In this document: piece by piece, positions 36,742 through 42,412 of the stretch
Layout of the letters: each line of letters starts with the position of its first letter
Position numbering within the stretch: position 1 is the first letter of the stretch
Origin: Thermodesulfovibrionia bacterium
Lineage (GTDB): Bacteria > Nitrospirota > Thermodesulfovibrionia > UBA6902 > BMS3Bbin08
Length of the DNA stretch: 64,000 nt
NCBI GenBank assembly: GCA_030694425.1
Contig: JAUXYI010000063.1
Span: 57,150-121,149, forward strand
Reading direction: 5' to 3'
Notes under the pieces: model-generated
What the model saw: only the letters and a program-made list of their open reading frames with translations
Databases searched by the model: none
What the model was told of the DNA's origin: nothing
Made by a program: the position numbers and the translations under genes

Positions 36742-37005
36742 ATGAAAACAGTAACCATACCGTATCCCGAAGGACTTCCTCAAACATTAAAGTTATCAGA
36801 TTCTGAATTTACAAAAGAAGTAAGATTTCTTGCAGCCGCAAAGCTTTATGAACTGGGGAAAATATCCTCAGGAAAAGCAGCAAAAATGGCTGGTTTGGAC
36901 AGGGTGTCTTTTCTTAAGAAGCTCGGTCATTATAAAATGCCCGCAATAAACATACAGGCTGAAGAAATAGAAAAGGAAGCAGAAGCAGTAAGATCTCTTA
37001 GATGA
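36742..37005 (+). CDS. UPF0175 family antitoxin
   Basis: Pattern ...EVRFLAAAKLYELGKIS.GKAAKMAG. Confidence 0.7.
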   Translation: MKTVTIPYPEGLPQTLKLSDSEFTKEVRFLAAAKLYELGKISSGKAAKMAGLDRVSFLKKLGHYKMPAINIQAEEIEKEAEAVRSLR

Positions 37006-37484
37006 AGATTGTCGTCAATACCGGCCCGCTTGTATTCCTTTCAAAAATAGACAGACTACACATCCTGCAAAAATTCGGAAACATACTTGTCCCTAAAGGC
37101 ATTATATCTGAAATCAGGCACAAGAAGGATGATGTATCAGCGGCGGTCGGCAAGATTTCTAATGACTGGCTAAAAATCAACGCTATAAAAAATAAAAACC
37201 TGCTCAATGTGCTTACAAAAGAGCTTGACGGCGGTGAAGCCGAAGTAATTTGTCTTGCCATTGAACAAAAAGCTGATTGGGTTGTTCTTGACGATCAGGA
37301 TGCCCGCCGCTTTGCTCATAGATACGGGCTGAATGTTATCGGGACATTAGGTCTTCTTGCCTGGGCAAAGAAAAAGGGTTTTATAAAAAGTTTTAAGAAT
37401 GAGGTAGAAAAACTGCGGAAAGCCGGTTTTTATGCAACCATTGCCCTTATTGAGAAATTATTACAGGAAGTAGAAGAAGATTAA
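37002..37484 (+). CDS. DUF3368 (PIN-like) toxin
   Basis: 4-nt overlap with UPF0175. VVNTGPL...EAEVI pattern. Confidence 0.7.
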   Translation: MKIVVNTGPLVFLSKIDRLHILQKFGNILVPKGIISEIRHKKDDVSAAVGKISNDWLKINAIKNKNLLNVLTKELDGGEAEVICLAIEQKADWVVLDDQDARRFAHRYGLNVIGTLGLLAWAKKKGFIKSFKNEVEKLRKAGFYATIALIEKLLQEVEED

Positions 37485-37494
37485 CTAACCTGTC

Positions 37495-37665
37495 CTTATT
37501 AAAACTATACTGCCATTTTCCTTAAAATTCCTCTGCGAGTCATAGACAGAATCCCTTTGTCTTGTCTGCACTTCTGATTATCTTTACTACTGCGCTATTG
37601 CACTTCTGCGCTTTGGAACTGTTTGAAGCTGGCGGATTGTGGGGCGGATGAAATACGGGAAGTGT
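37495..37665. repeat. toxin-antitoxin island boundary repeat copy 6
   Basis: AACTATACTGCCATT...AGAATCCCTTTGTCTTGTCTGCACTTCTGATTATCTTTACTACTGCGCTATTGCAC...GGCGGATTGTGGGGCGGATG. Confidence 0.4.
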
Positions 37666-37793
37666 CTCTGCCTAGTTCCCAAAATATAATCATCAGGATT
37701 TTTATTCTCTATGTGCTTCATCAAGAGTTCCCATAGCTCAGGCGTGAGGCGTAAGGCCGGGGGATATCCACGGCCTTACTTATGGGATGTGAA

Positions 37794-38021
37794 TTAACTT
37801 CTTCCGTAAGTTCTTGTGTTCTTATGGCAGGTTGCACACATGGCGGTTAAATTACTCAAAGTGTCTGGACCTCCTGCTGTACGATGATGAGCGTCCCAAT
37901 ATCCTACAGATAGACTCCTGCTACATCTCCTGTCACCATGGTCACAATTTATCATGGTGCATTCACATCTCCCACCAGCTCTCTGATAGAGTGCCTTTTT
38001 GGTTTCTTCTGAAATTGCCAT
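37794..38021 (-). CDS. small HNH endonuclease
   Basis: CxxC...HH...N...CxxCH: an HNH zinc finger in 75 aa. Confidence 0.6.
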   Translation of the reverse strand: MAISEETKKALYQRAGGRCECTMINCDHGDRRCSRSLSVGYWDAHHRTAGGPDTLSNLTAMCATCHKNTRTYGRS

Positions 38022-38214
38022 AATACCTCCTGTCCCCTGACTCTTGACAGGCGATCGTAAGCATGTTAGGCTTAATTACACTACGACGCCTGAGCAATCA
38101 GGGGTTCTTTAGGGGTTAAAGAACTCAACTTTCTTTAACCCCTTTTGTTAATAATAGATACAAGCCCCATCCCATTACTACTGCAATTATTTATCATATA
38201 TCACCCCCTTTCTT

Positions 38215-39318
38215 TTAGATGTCAATTGCTTCTATGATTTGAGTTTTGATTTTCTCGATACTTCTCTCTGTTGAAACTTTAATATCGTCCCAAATTTTAT
38301 TGTCAAGAAGCATTTTTAATTTTTCTTCTACGGCCTCCCACTTAATCTTGTCTGTCTCACAATATGCTGCACCTAAAGAATTATCGCCGCCACCTGCTTG
38401 CATAAGTATCTTCCCAGCAAAATAACCCAATGTTTCAAAAGGATGGCGTTTACAAATATTTTTAACGTGCTCCTGTTTTGATTTATCCTCAGAAGTTTTC
38501 GGTTTATGCATCCAATTTGGTTTTATAAGAATGCTGGTAATCAAGTTTGTAATTTTATTGACGTTTTCAACTTCTTCTTCTCTCAGGCTTAAAGATTTTT
38601 CAACAGGCGTAGTTTTTATTAACTGTTGCAAAAAAAATCCTAAATTTATGCTTGTAATTGGGGCATCCTTGCTCTGCCTGTCACTAATAAATTTACTTAT
38701 TAGGCTTTGTTCATGATCAATTACTTGTTGAATCATTCTTGAGATCAGGTATTTCTTAATGTCTCCGGGACTATAAATTCCAAGATGTTCGAAAACTTTA
38801 ATTTCATTTATTTCTGTGTTTGGATCTGCATCTTCCAAGTCATCTTTAGTTGACAACAGAATATCCTTTACCTTTCTTGCTAAATCGCCACCACTCAATG
38901 CTTTAGCACGATCTTCTCTATTTGCCTCTATACCGCACAGTAAAGCCAACTGTTTATCCATATTGATATAGACAATGCAGGGGATTTTTTCCATTTTAAG
39001 AATATCTTTACAAGCTCGCCACCTATGTTGGCCTTCTGTGACTAGAATTTTATTTGTCTTTTCATCAAGCCTGCATAGAATTGGTTGCATAAGAATTTTT
39101 CTGTTAATGCTCCTAGCAATTTTTTTTGCTTGGTTTTCATTAAAAGTTCGGGGTTGAGCGTCTTCGTCACGTTCTAACTCATTCACATCTATACAGTCCA
39201 GAAAAAATTTATGCCCCTTCATTTCATATATGGGCACTTCGTAAGAACCGCGTCCATCCTGTCTATAATGCGGCTTGCCAGTATATGTGCAACTTGCTGT
39301 CATCTTCTTGTCGAGCAT
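38215..39318 (-). CDS. DGQHR-domain (DndB-like, ParB/Srx fold) protein
   Basis: TEGQHRW motif in an N-terminal ParB-like fold. 367 aa. Standalone, next to a restriction-modification system. Confidence 0.65.
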   Translation of the reverse strand: MLDKKMTASCTYTGKPHYRQDGRGSYEVPIYEMKGHKFFLDCIDVNELERDEDAQPRTFNENQAKKIARSINRKILMQPILCRLDEKTNKILVTEGQHRWRACKDILKMEKIPCIVYINMDKQLALLCGIEANREDRAKALSGGDLARKVKDILLSTKDDLEDADPNTEINEIKVFEHLGIYSPGDIKKYLISRMIQQVIDHEQSLISKFISDRQSKDAPITSINLGFFLQQLIKTTPVEKSLSLREEEVENVNKITNLITSILIKPNWMHKPKTSEDKSKQEHVKNICKRHPFETLGYFAGKILMQAGGGDNSLGAAYCETDKIKWEAVEEKLKMLLDNKIWDDIKVSTERSIEKIKTQIIEAIDI

Positions 39319-39505
39319 ATTAACCTCCTATCATTATTATCGCTAATCATTAATATTGTATATCATTGTTAATGACGTGTCAAGAAAAAAATATTGAATA
39401 TCAATGTGTTGGTTAAATGCTTAGGTTTATTTAGGCGGCTTACCTAAAAGAACTATCGACCAAAATTATAAACATTTTCAGGTCCATAGCATTGCGTAGC
39501 GGTTT

Positions 39506-40255
39506 TTATAGGTTATTTACAACAATATCCTCCAATAAACCTTCAGTCAGCATTTTCAAATTGAGAAGATATTCTATATGATTAAATGTTTCTTCTAACG
39601 GTCTGCTTGTCGATTGCCAACCGATTCCGTCAGTGATCCAGACAAATTTATGCCTATCCTTTGTAAGAAAATCATAAAGAGCCTTGTATTCCCCCGCAGT
39701 AGATTTAAGTTTTGAACCTCCACCGCCATAGTAGTTTGTTTCTATAAGATAAAGTGACTTGCCATTATATACGGCAAAATCGAATCGTCTGCTTGATTTA
39801 TCAACTCCGAGTTTTAGTCCCCACTGTTCTAAAACTTTTTCAGCAGTTGCTTCTTTAATATATTTAAAATCGTGACTGGTACAAATCTCTTTTACAAAAT
39901 TTTCTGTAACTTTTTCCATGGCTGTTCCGCCACGGTTTTTCCGTCCATTGCTATCGAGCCCGACTTCAATTCCTATTGTGTAATCAACAACATTTTTAAT
40001 AGTTTTGTCTTTGAATATTTTCAACAAACCACTTTTTTGAGCAAAACGGACAGCTTTTGAAATTTCGGGATCGGAAAGATTTTTCTTCTCCTCAAATGAA
40101 AAATCTTCATACTTAAGATTCCCCTCAGAAAGATCTGTGAGGATTTTAAACTTATTCTCTCTACATGCAAGAAGGACAGGAATTAATCTCACAATCTGTG
40201 GATGCTTTTTTAAGAGATAGCCAAACTCTTTTTGGATATTTTCTTTACCGATCAA
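39506..40255 (-). CDS. type II restriction endonuclease, DpnII/MboI family (GATC-type predicted)
   Basis: VDYTIGIEVGLDSNGRKNRGG...IETNYYGGGGSKL...FVWITDGIGW matches the DpnII family. The annotated TTG start lacks about 60 aa of family N-terminal homology. That homology continues in frame up to about 40430, with no ATG or GTG, and overlaps the methyltransferase 3' end. Confidence 0.7.
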   Translation of the reverse strand: MIGKENIQKEFGYLLKKHPQIVRLIPVLLACRENKFKILTDLSEGNLKYEDFSFEEKKNLSDPEISKAVRFAQKSGLLKIFKDKTIKNVVDYTIGIEVGLDSNGRKNRGGTAMEKVTENFVKEICTSHDFKYIKEATAEKVLEQWGLKLGVDKSSRRFDFAVYNGKSLYLIETNYYGGGGSKLKSTAGEYKALYDFLTKDRHKFVWITDGIGWQSTSRPLEETFNHIEYLLNLKMLTEGLLEDIVVNNL

Positions 40256-40449
40256 ATAGTTAAGAATATTTAAGTCTACCTCTAAGTCTTTAGTATTACC
40301 AATAACTTTTTTCCAATTTACAAAATAATCCCAATATCTTATAGAATCGTTGAGATTGTTTATGAGGTAAGCAAAAACTTCCGTTGTGTTATTACAGTCG
40401 ATTTTCTTTTTTAATATAGAATAATATTTAATCTGCTTTCGACCTTTTT

Positions 40450-41382
40450 TTAATCTGGTAAGTTGGTTACTTTATTTTCAATTGCTTCTTCCAATCTTTT
40501 CTTAGAAAGCTGAAGATATTCCTCCTCCAACTCAATCCCAACATATTTTCTATTAAGTAGAACTGCTGCTACGCCTGTTGTTGAACTGCCACAAAACGGG
40601 TCTAAAACCAAGTCGCCTTCTTTTGTAGAGGCTTGAATTATTCTTTTTAAAAGCTCTACTGGTTTTTGTGTTGGATGTTTCCCAAACTTTTTTTCCTCGG
40701 CTGGTGGAGCTGAAATTTCCCACACATTGCGCATTTGTTTACCGTTATTCATTTTTTTCATCAATTTATAATCAAAGTAATGTTTGCTCTTTTCATTCTT
40801 TGCTGCCCATAAAACTATCTCTGTGGAATGGGTAAAGTATCTGCATGAAAGATTTGGTGGAGCATTACGTTTATACCAGATGATATCATTGAGAATTTTG
40901 TATCCGAGTTCCTGCATGGCAAAACCAACTAAGTAAATAATGTGTGTTGTTCCAGATACCCAAATAGTGCCGTTAGGTTTTAAAACTCGTTGACAAGCCT
41001 TTAACCATTCAAGAGTAAATTTGTGATTTTCTTCTATGCCTTTTGACTTATCCCATTTTCCTTTATTAACAGACACCATTTTCCCTGCATGGCAAGTAAT
41101 ACCTCCGTTGGAAAGACAATAAGGCGGGTCGGCAAAGATCATGTCAACACTGTTTTCTCTTGCCTGATTAAGTATTTCTACACAGTCTCCTTTGAGGAGT
41201 CTTACCGAATGTTCAGGATTGTCATAATAACGGGTAAATAGTTTTTTCTTCCCATAGATTGCTGTTTCTTCGGAGATATAGAATTCAATAGGATTTACTT
41301 TATAGCTATGGATTAATTCCCTTTTTTTCTTTGCTGATAATACCGGGGACTTATTACTTTTTTTTCTTTTCATTAATTTCAT
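40450..41382 (-). CDS. beta-class DNA methyltransferase (N6-adenine/N4-cytosine; DpnA/MboIB-like)
   Basis: Motif IV DPPY (IFADPPYCLSNGG) precedes motif I (DPFCGSSTTG). Confidence 0.85.
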   Translation of the reverse strand: MKLMKRKKSNKSPVLSAKKKRELIHSYKVNPIEFYISEETAIYGKKKLFTRYYDNPEHSVRLLKGDCVEILNQARENSVDMIFADPPYCLSNGGITCHAGKMVSVNKGKWDKSKGIEENHKFTLEWLKACQRVLKPNGTIWVSGTTHIIYLVGFAMQELGYKILNDIIWYKRNAPPNLSCRYFTHSTEIVLWAAKNEKSKHYFDYKLMKKMNNGKQMRNVWEISAPPAEEKKFGKHPTQKPVELLKRIIQASTKEGDLVLDPFCGSSTTGVAAVLLNRKYVGIELEEEYLQLSKKRLEEAIENKVTNLPD

Positions 41383-41608
41383 TAAATAAATCGCTGATTT
41401 TTACGTTTAATGCCCGTGCTATCTTTGAAATATTCTCAAGGGAGATATTCCTTTCCCCGCGTTCAACACTTCCGATATATGTCCTGTGAAGTCCGCAAAG
41501 GTCAGAGAGCTTTTCTTGAGTCATATTCATGGATTCACGAATAAGACGTATGTTTTTCCCGAATATCTTCTTAATGTCAGACATATTGCTGATCAAATTG
41601 TTGATCAA
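41354..41608 (-). CDS. XRE-family HTH controller (C) protein of the restriction-modification system
   Basis: HTH_3 pattern. Sits immediately upstream of the methyltransferase with an overlap. Confidence 0.65.
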   Translation of the reverse strand: MINNLISNMSDIKKIFGKNIRLIRESMNMTQEKLSDLCGLHRTYIGSVERGERNISLENISKIARALNVKISDLFNEINEKKKK

Positions 41609-42083
41609 TTGATGCCTATAAGTCTACAGACTATAAGTATCATTTTAATCGGGGAATTCTCCACTTTCCTTAAGGGTATAATTTTTGTTCGTTATGCCTG
41701 CAACAGCCTGAATACAAAAGAAAAAAGATACTGGATTCCGCCTCAAGTGCGGAATGACAGGCTTATTATGATTTCACAAGAAAGAACAAATTCTATATCC
41801 CTCTTGCTTACAAAGTCATGGAACGGTTTTTAAAGGTCGGCTTTGTTTTGAGGGAGGACATTATCAAACTCCAGCATAACTGCAAGGCAACAGGTTTCTG
41901 GTCACAGACTCGTAGAGGTAAAAAAGTCTAAACTCTACAATTTTCTTTTAATAATGCATGAACATATTTTTGTATTTCAGAAAGTGCAGTAGCGCAGAAG
42001 AGCGGAAGTAAAATACCCCTCACCCTTACCCTCTCCCGCAAGGGGAGAGGGGTATTAGCTGAAAAACCTGCAAATTCGACAGT

Positions 42084-42122
42084 CTCGTCGCCAGAGAAAC
42101 AGGGAAAGCGGTTTATCTGTAA
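42084..42122. repeat. 35-bp cassette boundary repeat (TCGCCAGAGAA...GTTTATCTGTAA) copy 1
   Basis: Three copies precede or follow each toxin-antitoxin unit in 42.0-43.7 kb. Confidence 0.5.
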
Positions 42123-42145
42123 AATATAACTTCCATATTAGTAAT

Positions 42146-42412
42146 ATGCTAAAATATAAACACTCGGAGGTTATTATGCAAAAAACAATAGATGCAATAT
42201 ATGAAGATGGTGTTTTTAAGCCGACAAAAAAGGTTGCTATACGGGAGCATACTAAATTAAAACTTGTTGTACTTAAAGAGGATAAAGACGCCGGGATTGT
42301 TGCAAAGAAACAGTCCGGGGCGCTTCTTTCGCTCGCTGGTATCTGGGAAAGCGGGGTCATGAATGTAAGTGAAGAACATGACAAATACCTTTACGGAACT
42401 TCCCCAAAATAA
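42146..42412 (+). CDS. antitoxin, AF2212/DUF104-like (AIYEDGVFKP motif)
   Basis: N-terminal motif typical of VapB-type antitoxins of this family. Confidence 0.5.
   Translation: MLKYKHSEVIMQKTIDAIYEDGVFKPTKKVAIREHTKLKLVVLKEDKDAGIVAKKQSGALLSLAGIWESGVMNVSEEHDKYLYGTSPK

Follow-up and report, generated by a model that had tools for sequence, protein, structure and literature searches.

An ATT-start endonuclease in a controller-led restriction-modification operon beside a putative split ParB-like/HNH nuclease module in a Thermodesulfovibrionia MAG

A two-module defence island

The low-GC defence island analysed here, from a Thermodesulfovibrionia MAG, consists of two separately transcribed modules: a type II restriction-modification (R-M) operon, and a ParB-like gene accompanied by a small HNH nuclease gene. 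The joint reading favoured, with some reserve, is that of a controller-methyltransferase-endonuclease (C-M-R) operon with a hypomorphic ATT-start endonuclease and a split ParB-like/HNH nuclease module. Within it, the genes present, the changed start codon, the ParB/Srx fold and the patterns of neighbourhood and fusion are observed, whereas endonuclease output, the GATC specificity, gating by NTP and a role in defence are inferred. The island lies in a window of 64,000 nucleotides (the whole stretch of DNA that was analysed), where the ORF map and family profile matches place five minus-strand genes at the positions and in the order given by the initial annotation, with the HNH gene at the lowest coordinates, followed by the ParB-fold, endonuclease, methyltransferase and controller genes.

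A C-controlled restriction-modification operon

The first module is a PvuII-type, C-controlled type II R-M operon running from a canonical C-box through controller and methyltransferase to endonuclease, and Pfam and PADLOC profiles upheld the earlier assignment of a controller, a beta-class DPPY methyltransferase and a DpnII/MboI endonuclease, in that order. Its features are:

41614..41639, minus strand: C-box operator TACT-tat-AGTC-tgta-GACT-tat-AGGC (read from sequence)
41354..41584, minus strand: controller (C) protein gene, 76 aa, HRTY recognition helix (profile matches)
40450..41373, minus strand: beta-class N6_N4 DNA methyltransferase (DPPY), 307 aa per NCBI (profile matches)
40450..40452, minus strand: methyltransferase stop TAA, six codons earlier than in relatives (junction alignment)
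40442..40447, minus strand: AAAGGT, Shine-Dalgarno-like, lying 9 nt before the ATT and kept in relatives
40430..40432, minus strand: ATT in place of the ancestral endonuclease start codon (homologue and DNA-level alignments)
39506..40432, minus strand: type II restriction endonuclease of the DpnII/MboI family, 308 codons, intact apart from its start codon (profile and homologues)
40253..40255, minus strand: first canonical in-frame start, TTG, giving a 249-aa truncation with 59 conserved residues lost

The C-box, ~30 nt upstream of the controller gene, agrees with the PvuII-type consensus GACT-N3-AGTC-N4-GACT-N3-AGTC at 14/16 half-box positions, and its spacer is TGTA, as is usual where the controller has an HRTY helix (PMC2175313). 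The controller (PADLOC Control_protein, 2.7e-29; Pfam HTH_3, 5.4e-18) most likely starts at ATG 41584 rather than TTG 41608, giving a 76-aa product, as at NCBI (MDP3297657.1) and in relatives. The methyltransferase (NCBI MDP3297656.1; Pfam N6_N4_Mtase, 9.7e-65; PADLOC MTase_II, 2.6e-101), whose longest ORF starts at 41382 (40450-41382), carries DPPY ahead of FxGxG and shares 78-90% identity with its counterparts in sister loci, one of which has a MutH-like endonuclease as its partner. The endonuclease matches Pfam DpnII at 1.3e-97 over profile positions 2-277 of 278, shares 93% identity with its best homologue across 100% of its length, and deviates at 2 of 118 conserved columns in an alignment with 117 homologues. 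In relatives, the operon reads C(76 aa)-M(315-318 aa)-R(308 aa), with M and R joined by an ATGA overlap through which the endonuclease would be translationally coupled to the methyltransferase.

Likeness to DpnII/MboI-type systems (PF04556) extends from the full-length, high-scoring endonuclease match (326.9 bits) to an adjacent protective methyltransferase and a host sequence strongly depleted in GATC (observed/expected 0.26 in the window), and GATC is the most likely specificity of the system. In contrast to the DpnII system, which has a Dam-like and a second methyltransferase, the operon here contains a single beta-class N6_N4 methyltransferase, is headed by a C protein and has an endonuclease starting with ATT. 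The HTH controller with its HRTY helix and the C-box are PvuII-like, although PvuII itself has the order C-R with a separately transcribed methyltransferase (PMC2175313), whereas here the three genes are co-directional in the order C-M-R and the endonuclease is coupled to the methyltransferase.

The ATT start of the endonuclease

The ATT, which replaces an ancestral ATG, is the only start that yields the full-length enzyme. All 117 aligned homologues begin at the ATT column (M in 112, L in 3 and V in 2), and the N-terminal 59 residues hold 23 of the 118 columns with at least 90% conservation, so that this segment is an integral, conserved part of the endonuclease family, as the initial annotation had supposed, and the product of the TTG is therefore a truncation. 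Homology had been placed about 60 codons upstream of that TTG; the alignment gives 59 codons before TTG 40255, upstream of which no Shine-Dalgarno-like sequence is visible, and the stretch 40471-40256, described earlier as having neither ATG nor GTG in frame, has no in-frame TTG either, with the family N-terminus at ATT 40432-40430. Other parts of the initial description need correction. The TTG is not the annotated start, since the public record (MDP3297655.1) begins at the ATT and is 308 aa long, and the overlap with the methyltransferase 3' end holds for the open frame but not for the homologous region, which begins 17 nt after the methyltransferase stop. Either of the earlier alternatives, an attenuated start or a degraded enzyme, may apply, with any degradation located in the start codon and not in the N-terminal sequence.

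Two point changes at the junction would explain this arrangement, one moving the methyltransferase stop six codons upstream and the other converting the endonuclease ATG to ATT. Relatives have TTG or TTA at the position of the TAA and terminate the methyltransferase at the TGA of the ATGA overlap, while the motif aaaaaggt(c/t)g precedes the ATG in five of them (L001, L003, L008, L017 and L029). With the ancestral ribosome-binding site kept, full-length endonuclease would be made solely via rare AUU initiation. In E. coli, AUU initiates at 1-2% of the AUG level (range 0.02-3%; 10.1101/063800), which suggests that the endonuclease is strongly attenuated or at a first step of decay. By the E. coli figures, a ~50-100-fold drop in endonuclease is predicted, and the outcome would be a functional controller-methyltransferase pair with little or no restriction. 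The E. coli genes infC and pcnB similarly have AUU at the start position after a Shine-Dalgarno-like sequence, with low initiation expected, but the infC AUU is conserved and serves autoregulation, whereas the ATT here is unique among the relatives examined and thus looks like a recent mutation.

The ATT is accordingly taken to be a recent mutation, hypomorphic or knock-down in effect, such as is typical of endonuclease turnover in this lineage. For example, the endonuclease of sister locus L017 has an AAA to TAA nonsense change at codon 96, and in L007 an orthologous methyltransferase (83% identity) is paired with a GATC-family endonuclease of MutH/Sau3AI-like type in place of the DpnII type. 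It is rather unlikely that the ATT is instead a selected weak start in a low-nuclease but fully working R-M system, in which a single C-M-R transcript would yield a lowered endonuclease-to-methyltransferase ratio, with the stop 17 nt upstream allowing termination-reinitiation. The intact endonuclease ORF, the retained ribosome-binding site, the two linked changes at the junction, the choice of the ATT by the NCBI pipeline, the real AUU starts of infC and pcnB, and the GTG or TTG starts found in ~4% of the family all fit such a start. However, a non-canonical codon occurs at this site in none of the 117 proteins or 16 DNA loci of relatives (ATG or GTG in 16/16 of the latter), and a fall to 1-2% far exceeds that expected for GTG or TTG. 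At 0.05-0.10, pairwise dN/dS for the endonuclease matches the low values seen among intact relatives, making continued function possible, but the knocked-out L017 copy has the same low value, so function is not proven by it.

There is only a slight chance that assembly or sequencing error produced the ATT, and perhaps also the TAA, or that these are minority variants in a mixed population where an ATG genotype dominates. In favour of this, the sequence comes from a single MAG assembly, the TAA extends an A-run to 7, and independent Logan contigs from the same sample and run, 100% identical elsewhere, end at 41062 and at 39758 and so flank the junction (a hint of strain heterogeneity there). 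On the other hand, both changes are substitutions rather than homopolymer-length errors, no gaps occur in the alignment to relatives, and many other genuine substitutions lie nearby, consistent with ~87% nucleotide identity to the nearest relative.

A ParB-like protein with putative small nuclease partners

The second module has the following features:

39355..39383, minus strand: promoter-like TTGACA-17-TACAAT of the ParB-like gene (11/12 consensus matches, best in region)
38215..39318, minus strand: ParB/Srx-fold protein, 367 aa, with motifs QPR, EGQHRWRA and CGIEAN-EDRA and a helical C-terminal domain
38111..38143, no strand assigned: hairpin of 13 bp that separates the ParB-like gene from the HNH gene, terminator-like on the plus strand only
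37794..38021, minus strand: small HNH nuclease of 75 aa, encoded as a stand-alone gene that has an AGGAGG ribosome-binding site of its own (Pfam HNH)

The promoter-like site is followed by an AGGAGG ribosome-binding site. The ParB/Srx fold is supported by structural and sequence matches (Pfam ParB_N, 1e-9), with Noc and KorB among the best structural matches and the best sequence alignment to ParB/Noc CTPases; neither BrxU nor SspE occurs among the structural matches listed. The family is rare (34 clusters in 5.8 billion proteins), and three members carry fused EVE domains. Its signature is EGQHR, with the E invariant in 31/31 members, and not the DGQHR first reported. Membership of the DGQHR/DndB families was rejected, as scores fall under the model thresholds (NCBIfam DGQHR, 16.4 bits against a cut-off of 58.85; Pfam DndB, weak matches in 4/31 members). 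Like DndB/DGQHR (TIGR03187, PF14072) and DpdB proteins, the protein belongs to the ParB superfamily and has a GQHR core, and those families are tied to DNA-modification defence loci. In agreement with the initial annotation, the other ORFs of the window gave no strong Dnd, Ssp or Dpd match, and thus no partners of a known multi-gene system. The C-terminal domain had no match, and PADLOC models did not match the module. Relative to the chromosomal ParB, Noc and KorB CTPase clamps, QPR and the equivalent of GERRWRA align residue for residue, but QHR stands where those proteins have the arginine pair ERR, a ParA partner and an evident parS are lacking, the C-terminal helical domain differs, a three-stranded beta extension is present at the N-terminus, and the genomic context is one of nucleases and defence genes.

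The suggestion of a standalone, single-gene factor did not hold, and the ParB-like protein appears to act with a small nuclease. An adjacent small nuclease is present at 10 of the 14 ParB-like loci with flanks (HNH at seven and, in sister loci, GIY-YIG at three) and no recognisable nuclease at the other four, while HNH is fused N-terminally in 23/38 of the wider ParB-like relatives. GIY-YIG is not an obligate partner, since its family has 337 hits against 34 for the ParB-like family, a tenfold difference. The HNH protein of the window (Pfam HNH, 4.3e-5, 24 bits against a cut-off of 21.4) has Cys pairs and a DAHH...N...CxxCH motif; its gene is recorded solely from a Logan assembly and is absent from the NCBI annotation. 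Counting against the pairing, it lies downstream of the ParB-like gene, with the hairpin in between, and is of another HNH lineage than the one found upstream in other members, whose HMM it matches at 8 bits. As the hairpin has no T-run on the minus strand, the two genes may nevertheless be co-transcribed.

It is improbable that the ParB-like protein is instead an accessory or regulator of the adjacent N6_N4 methyltransferase or R-M system and that the HNH is an unrelated island gene. Such a role could be negative regulation in the manner of DndB, repression by a CTP-dependent clamp as with KorB, or loading, as for the ParB domains that some phage methyltransferases carry as fusions. In four related loci, including where the endonuclease is swapped, the ParB-like gene comes directly after a GATC-type R-M system, but these are syntenic islands of one lineage (81-86% identity) and therefore count as one observation. 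An independent homologue (L033, 40% identical) is divergently oriented to an N6_N4 methyltransferase, and the KorB and Noc matches would suit such a role. ParB_N-methyltransferase fusions are also common, and count in its favour. Against this, most other members have an HNH and no methyltransferase nearby, the wider family is fused to HNH rather than to methyltransferases, and the ParB-like gene has its own strong promoter-like site. Still less probable is a selfish mobile cassette, in which a homing-type nuclease is joined by a protein that binds DNA, or the remnant of a partition or packaging function from a plasmid or phage. Cassettes of just the HNH and ParB-like genes do sit among housekeeping genes (trpE/trpG in L005, acetyl-CoA carboxylase genes in L015), an arrangement that also speaks for the paired nuclease module, and the ParB_N domain is nearest to partition ParB proteins, but the loci read have neither ParA nor integrase nor phage structural genes adjacent, the neighbours are toxin-antitoxin, restriction-modification, BrxP, IetA-like and LmuB-like genes, and the EVE fusions point to modified-base recognition.

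By analogy, the pair is read as a GmrSD-like nuclease module, split and gated by nucleotide, for which PADLOC has no model. ParB-fold domains are joined with HNH nucleases in type IV restriction (PMC4619093, PMC3632139, PMC12839542), and GmrSD, BrxU and SspE combine a DUF262 ParB-like NTPase with a DUF1524 HNH-like nuclease. Shared with these are a ParB/Srx-fold domain bearing a G-Q-x-R signature together with a His-Me/HNH nuclease, split and fused forms (as in GmrS/GmrD), a defence-island context, and links to modified-base readers, here via the EVE fusions. In contrast, the HNH is N-terminal in the fusions, reversing the domain order, and is a classical PF01844 HNH rather than DUF1524; the motif is EGQHR (DGQHK in fusions) rather than DGQQR; and Pfam GmrSD_N matches weakly in 1/31 members, the sequence being nearer to ParB/Noc CTPases. 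The pair may thus be the split form of the HNH-ParB-like fusion proteins, in which the ParB-like subunit, with its apparently conserved nucleotide-pocket signature (QPR, EGQHRWRA and EAN-EDR), would sense or clamp DNA under NTP gating and license the nuclease in a putative defence role.

Gene content of the defence island

Five genes make up the island, all on the minus strand within 37794-41639; they can be read as two modules, a restriction-modification (R-M) operon that encodes a controller (C) protein, a methyltransferase and an endonuclease, and a pair formed by a ParB-fold protein and a small HNH nuclease.

Features of the island in order of transcription, with E values from profile searches
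41639-41614, minus strand: C-box, TACT-tat-AGTC-tgta-GACT-tat-AGGC (TACTtatAGTCtgtaGACTtatAGGC), upstream of the C gene (ATG at 41584)
Minus strand: C protein (HTH_3, 5.4e-18; PADLOC Control_protein, 2.7e-29)
Minus strand: N6_N4 methyltransferase (N6_N4_Mtase, 9.7e-65; MTase_II, 2.6e-101)
Minus strand: DpnII-family endonuclease (DpnII, 1.3e-97; PADLOC REase_II, 1.9e-95), with ATT at 40432-40430
Minus strand: 367-aa ParB-fold protein (ParB_N, 1e-9)
37794-38021, minus strand: 75-aa HNH nuclease (HNH, 4.3e-5, over the cut-off)

The block has a G+C content of 0.34-0.36, against approximately 0.40 for the window overall, and is flanked by toxin-antitoxin genes, namely the DUF3368, UPF0175 and RelB-like genes predicted on a Logan contig of identical sequence. 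An NCBI protein from a Thermodesulfovibrionia (Nitrospirota) MAG matches the ParB-fold protein at 100% identity, and the C protein (MDP3297657.1), methyltransferase (MDP3297656.1) and endonuclease (MDP3297655.1) are recorded on one 154.5-kb contig. The 75-aa HNH ORF is recorded in a Logan assembly only and is missing from the proteins that NCBI lists for the source MAG, and is thus probably without annotation in the public record.

Elsewhere in the window, a pooled PADLOC scan of 47 non-island ORFs returned single-ORF matches to PDC-S70 (1.5e-44), PDC-M45B and PDC-M05A, along with mad2/mad3/mad8, AriA/GajA-type ATPases and pVip. As ten ORFs at 48-64 kb gave no PADLOC match, these lie in other parts of the window, and some may be housekeeping paralogues.

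An ATT codon at the endonuclease start column

The first in-frame ATG, GTG or TTG past the upstream stop is a TTG at 40255, and the Pfam and PADLOC endonuclease profiles match from approximately 60 codons upstream of it. The DpnII match (PF04556) is full-length, spanning profile positions 2-277 of 278 with 326.9 bits (cut-off 23), and nearly all of the best 120 homologues are exactly 308 aa long and align along 100% of a query starting at the ATT at 40432-40430, where the homologues read MKYSSIF... and the window IKYYSIL.... All 117 homologues in the alignment begin at this column (M in 112, L in three, V in two). At the DNA level, 16 distinct relatives (loci L001/L016, L002, L003, L008, L017-L026, L028 and L029) have ATG at this position, except L026 with GTG, and the window has ATT. 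The 59 residues that would be lost with the TTG hold 23 of the 118 columns conserved at 90% or more, so this stretch belongs to the enzyme, which answers a question raised by the initial annotation. The window enzyme is a PF04556 member with a complete N-terminus and a non-canonical start codon, and ATT is the sole codon able to yield the full-length endonuclease, which is also where the NCBI pipeline already starts the gene. The ORF is otherwise fully intact: only two of the 118 conserved columns deviate in the window, the start itself and G260R, the latter shared with two other members.

In close relatives the methyltransferase gene ends and the endonuclease gene begins within an overlapping ATGA, where the window reads ATTA. 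The alignment is free of gaps; a TAA six codons earlier ends the window methyltransferase 17 nt before the ATT, and a Shine-Dalgarno-like AAAGGT is kept upstream of it. Two other routes to a product were rejected. Initiation at TTG 40255 would remove those highly conserved columns, no homologue begins there and the codon lacks a Shine-Dalgarno-like sequence upstream. A -1 frameshift that fuses the methyltransferase to the endonuclease was discarded because the endonuclease frame opens only at 40471, the 22 nt shared by the two open frames contain no X-XXY-YYZ slippery heptamer, and the A7 run starts within the methyltransferase stop codon.

Attenuation, decay or artefact

Initiation at AUU in E. 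coli proceeds at 1-2% of the AUG level, with a range of 0.02-3% over constructs (10.1101/063800). Since no relative shares the ATT, we lean towards a recent mutation that knocked expression down; the lesion itself is probably recent. Selection for a weak start is the strongest competing explanation, though an unlikely one. Pairwise dN/dS between the window endonuclease and its relatives is 0.05-0.10, equal to that among intact relatives (dS to the nearest relatives is 0.64-0.82, and three-point branch estimates are noisy), and the endonuclease of L017, a knocked-out relative, gives equally low values, so that dN/dS cannot separate attenuation from decay.

An assembly or minority-variant artefact is improbable. 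A check for independent contigs over the ATT found Logan assemblies of the source run (SRR13727538) that agree with the window at 100% identity on both sides, but end at 41062 and 39758, and none spans 39759-41061, the interval that holds the methyltransferase-endonuclease junction; exact look-up of the 249-aa, 310-aa and 307-aa products retrieved no contigs. The gap may point to heterogeneity between strains precisely in the variable endonuclease region.

Other changes to the endonuclease gene are seen in the clade. In L017:4001-4927 (Nitrospiraceae UBA8922, DOHC01000227.1), a 90%-identical endonuclease orthologue carries AAA to TAA at codon 96, an independent inactivation. In the syntenic sister island L007:4208-5793, the methyltransferase is an orthologue 83% identical to that of the window, as close as in DpnII-type loci, while a MutH/Sau3AI-like endonuclease (PF02976, 1.1e-11) replaces the DpnII-type enzyme and no C gene was recognised upstream. 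The clade thus shows endonuclease turnover about a stable methyltransferase.

Control and specificity of the R-M operon

The C-box agrees with GACT-N3-AGTC-N4-GACT-N3-AGTC at 14 of 16 half-box positions and has a TGTA spacer, and the recognition helix of the C protein HTH (...GLHRTYIGSVERG...) places it in the HRTY subgroup, for which this spacer is characteristic (PMC2175313). The operon therefore resembles PvuII-type systems in its HTH C protein with an HRTY helix and its C-box with a TGTA spacer, but differs in gene order, which in the window and in every close relative is C-M-R, so that the C gene is not directly followed by the endonuclease gene.

Both the DpnII-type and the MutH/Sau3AI-like endonucleases belong to GATC families. 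GATC occurs 52 times in the window against 198 expected (ratio 0.26), making it the second most depleted palindromic tetramer, with only CTAG lower (0.09). Taken together, family membership, the pairing of the orthologous methyltransferase with a MutH/Sau3AI-like enzyme in L007 and the depletion make GATC a reasonable prediction for the specificity of the R-M system. Of the 52 sites, 13 fall inside the ~5-kb island (37000-42200), a pattern that fits a genome long exposed to GATC restriction and an island that arrived recently.

The R-M system is not generally linked to the ParB-like gene. An AIPR gene follows the endonuclease in the relatives L001 and L002, and a DUF433 toxin-antitoxin pair is found in L003, which rules out a conserved linkage. 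In the window, a separate promoter-like site (TTGACA-17-TACAAT, matching at 11 of 12 positions) and an AGGAGG ribosome-binding site precede the ParB-like gene, which therefore lies outside the R-M operon.

A rare ParB/Noc-like family

The DGQHR domain is defined by a nearly invariant pentapeptide (PMC4619093). The initial annotation was right in its essentials, but its description of the 367-aa protein as a standalone DGQHR protein does not hold in either part. The motif is EGQHR, with E95 invariant in 31 sequences, and the NCBIfam DGQHR model (TIGR03187) gives 16.4 bits where its cut-off asks for 58.85. Pfam DndB (PF14072) does not match the window protein and gives weak matches (best E 0.00098) in four of the 31 members, and no PADLOC model matches it in profile searches; membership of the DndB/DGQHR, GmrSD_N and PADLOC families was rejected, with scores under threshold or absent. 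No dnd, ssp or dpd genes were found in close sister loci, or among the best 25 of 42 PADLOC families for the 47 other window ORFs.

The protein instead carries a ParB_N domain (38.7 bits against a cut-off of 26.3) with QPR and GxxRxxA motifs, and the family profile aligns best to ParB/Noc CTPases, QPR onto QPR and EGQHRWRA onto GERRWRA of M. xanthus ParB. Scores against full-length equivalog models fall below their cut-offs (TIGR00180, 38.3 versus 58.45; nucleoid_noc, 43.2 versus 315), nothing specific matches the helical C-terminal half, and no ParA gene was called in the neighbourhoods read. The family is rare, with 34 clusters at 90% identity in 5.8 billion proteins and, in 1.84 billion representatives, seven 50% clusters below E 1e-100 and 66 clusters below E 1e-10.

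Candidate nuclease partners of the ParB-like gene

Nor does the gene usually stand alone. Among 14 loci with usable flanks, a small HNH gene adjoins the ParB-like gene in seven, downstream in the window and immediately upstream in L005, L006, L011, L012, L015 and L031, and in the three closest sister loci a gene for a 116-aa protein occupies the position of the window HNH. The remaining four loci have no recognisable nuclease.

Genes for the 116-aa protein in sister loci
L008:3859-4209
L007:7293-7643
L029:3725-4075

Searches of Pfam, NCBIfam and PDB sequences with the 116-aa protein returned nothing. It was resolved as GIY-YIG by the fold search alone: its AF2 model (pLDDT 95.4) has the UvrC GIY-YIG domain as all nine of its best PDB matches, its invariant residues (GNY...YVGR...E...N) agree with the GIY-YIG catalytic set, and it ends in a C-terminal CxxC. 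With 337 database matches, all labelled 'hypothetical', it looks, on this model, like an unannotated small nuclease family.

Fusions extend the association. Many wider relatives of ~500 aa match the family profile over the whole length; in 23 of 38, a Pfam HNH domain precedes the ParB-like part, and the motif reads DGQHK. Three core members (P0136, P0137 and P0140) bear an N-terminal EVE domain, a PUA-like reader of modified bases. At L031:513-2310, the locus of an EVE member, a 71-aa HNH gene lies directly upstream and a gene for a 467-aa protein with a weak HATPase_c_3 match downstream.

In two loci the pair stands bare, at L005:5625-7101 between trpE and trpG and at L015:5592-7041 between carboxyltransferase and biotin carboxylase genes, suggesting that HNH and ParB-like genes form an autonomous, mobile cassette. 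Among distant homologues (L006:5796-12692, L012 and L014), the pair heads a cluster that encodes a 274-aa protein, an IetA-like AAA ATPase, a 119-aa protein and an LmuB-like SMC protein, with a convergent BrxP-like PAPS reductase gene (1.3e-83) downstream; the arrangement may represent a larger system that is as yet uncharacterised.

Several observations speak against partnership. The window HNH is of another lineage than the upstream HNHs (8 bits against their HMM), a hairpin separates the ParB-like and HNH genes in the window, and the GIY-YIG family is much larger than the ParB-like family. One independent locus, L033, again places the ParB-like gene beside an N6_N4 methyltransferase gene, which leaves room for a rival reading of the protein as a methyltransferase accessory or regulator.

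Relation to GmrSD-type systems and implications

ParB-fold DUF262/DGQHR domains are joined with HNH and other nucleases, often in linkage with R-M systems, and the studied cases of such pairings are GmrSD, BrxU and SspE (PMC4619093, PMC3632139, PMC12839542, PMC13251355). The ParB-like/nuclease pair is a variant of this known 'ParB-fold NTPase plus nuclease' theme that lies outside PADLOC 2.0. It shares with GmrSD-type systems (DUF262 + DUF1524) a ParB/Srx-fold domain, N-terminal in the ParB-like protein, and a His-Me/HNH-type nuclease, either separate (seven loci) or fused (23 of 38 wider relatives). It differs in that the HNH is of the classical PF01844 type and, in the fusions, is located N-terminally, and in that the motif is EGQHR rather than DGQQR; GmrSD_N matches one of 31 members, at E 0.0042.

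By analogy, the ParB-like protein and its swappable small nuclease could form an undescribed defence module, a reversed or split counterpart of GmrSD; we regard this as possible, short of probable. In such a module the clamp would be of the canonical ParB/Noc type, possibly CTP-binding, rather than DUF262, and its loading onto DNA under nucleotide control would be what permits the cutting of foreign or modified DNA. The nuclease would be interchangeable, as HNH in the window, GIY-YIG in sister loci or an N-terminally fused HNH in wider relatives, and an EVE reader domain would be added in some members. The EVE fusion in three members is the one hint that cleavage by the ParB-like module might be modification-dependent and NTP-regulated.

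The R-M system belongs to known kinds and is ordinary but for an unusual start-codon lesion that is already in the public annotation. Within one clade, the endonuclease gene has lost its start codon in the window, gained a nonsense codon in one relative and been replaced in another, offering a clean, datable case of a restriction gene turned down with its methyltransferase retained, and a warning that ORF finders will wrongly report genes of this kind as truncated at the N-terminus. The ParB-like part is the more useful lead, being a rare family with ParB/Noc-type nucleotide-pocket motifs that is tied to nucleases by both neighbourhood and fusion. Should it prove to be a defence module, the principle known from GmrSD, BrxU and SspE would reach the CTPase-like branch of the superfamily, in the form of a compact two-gene system.
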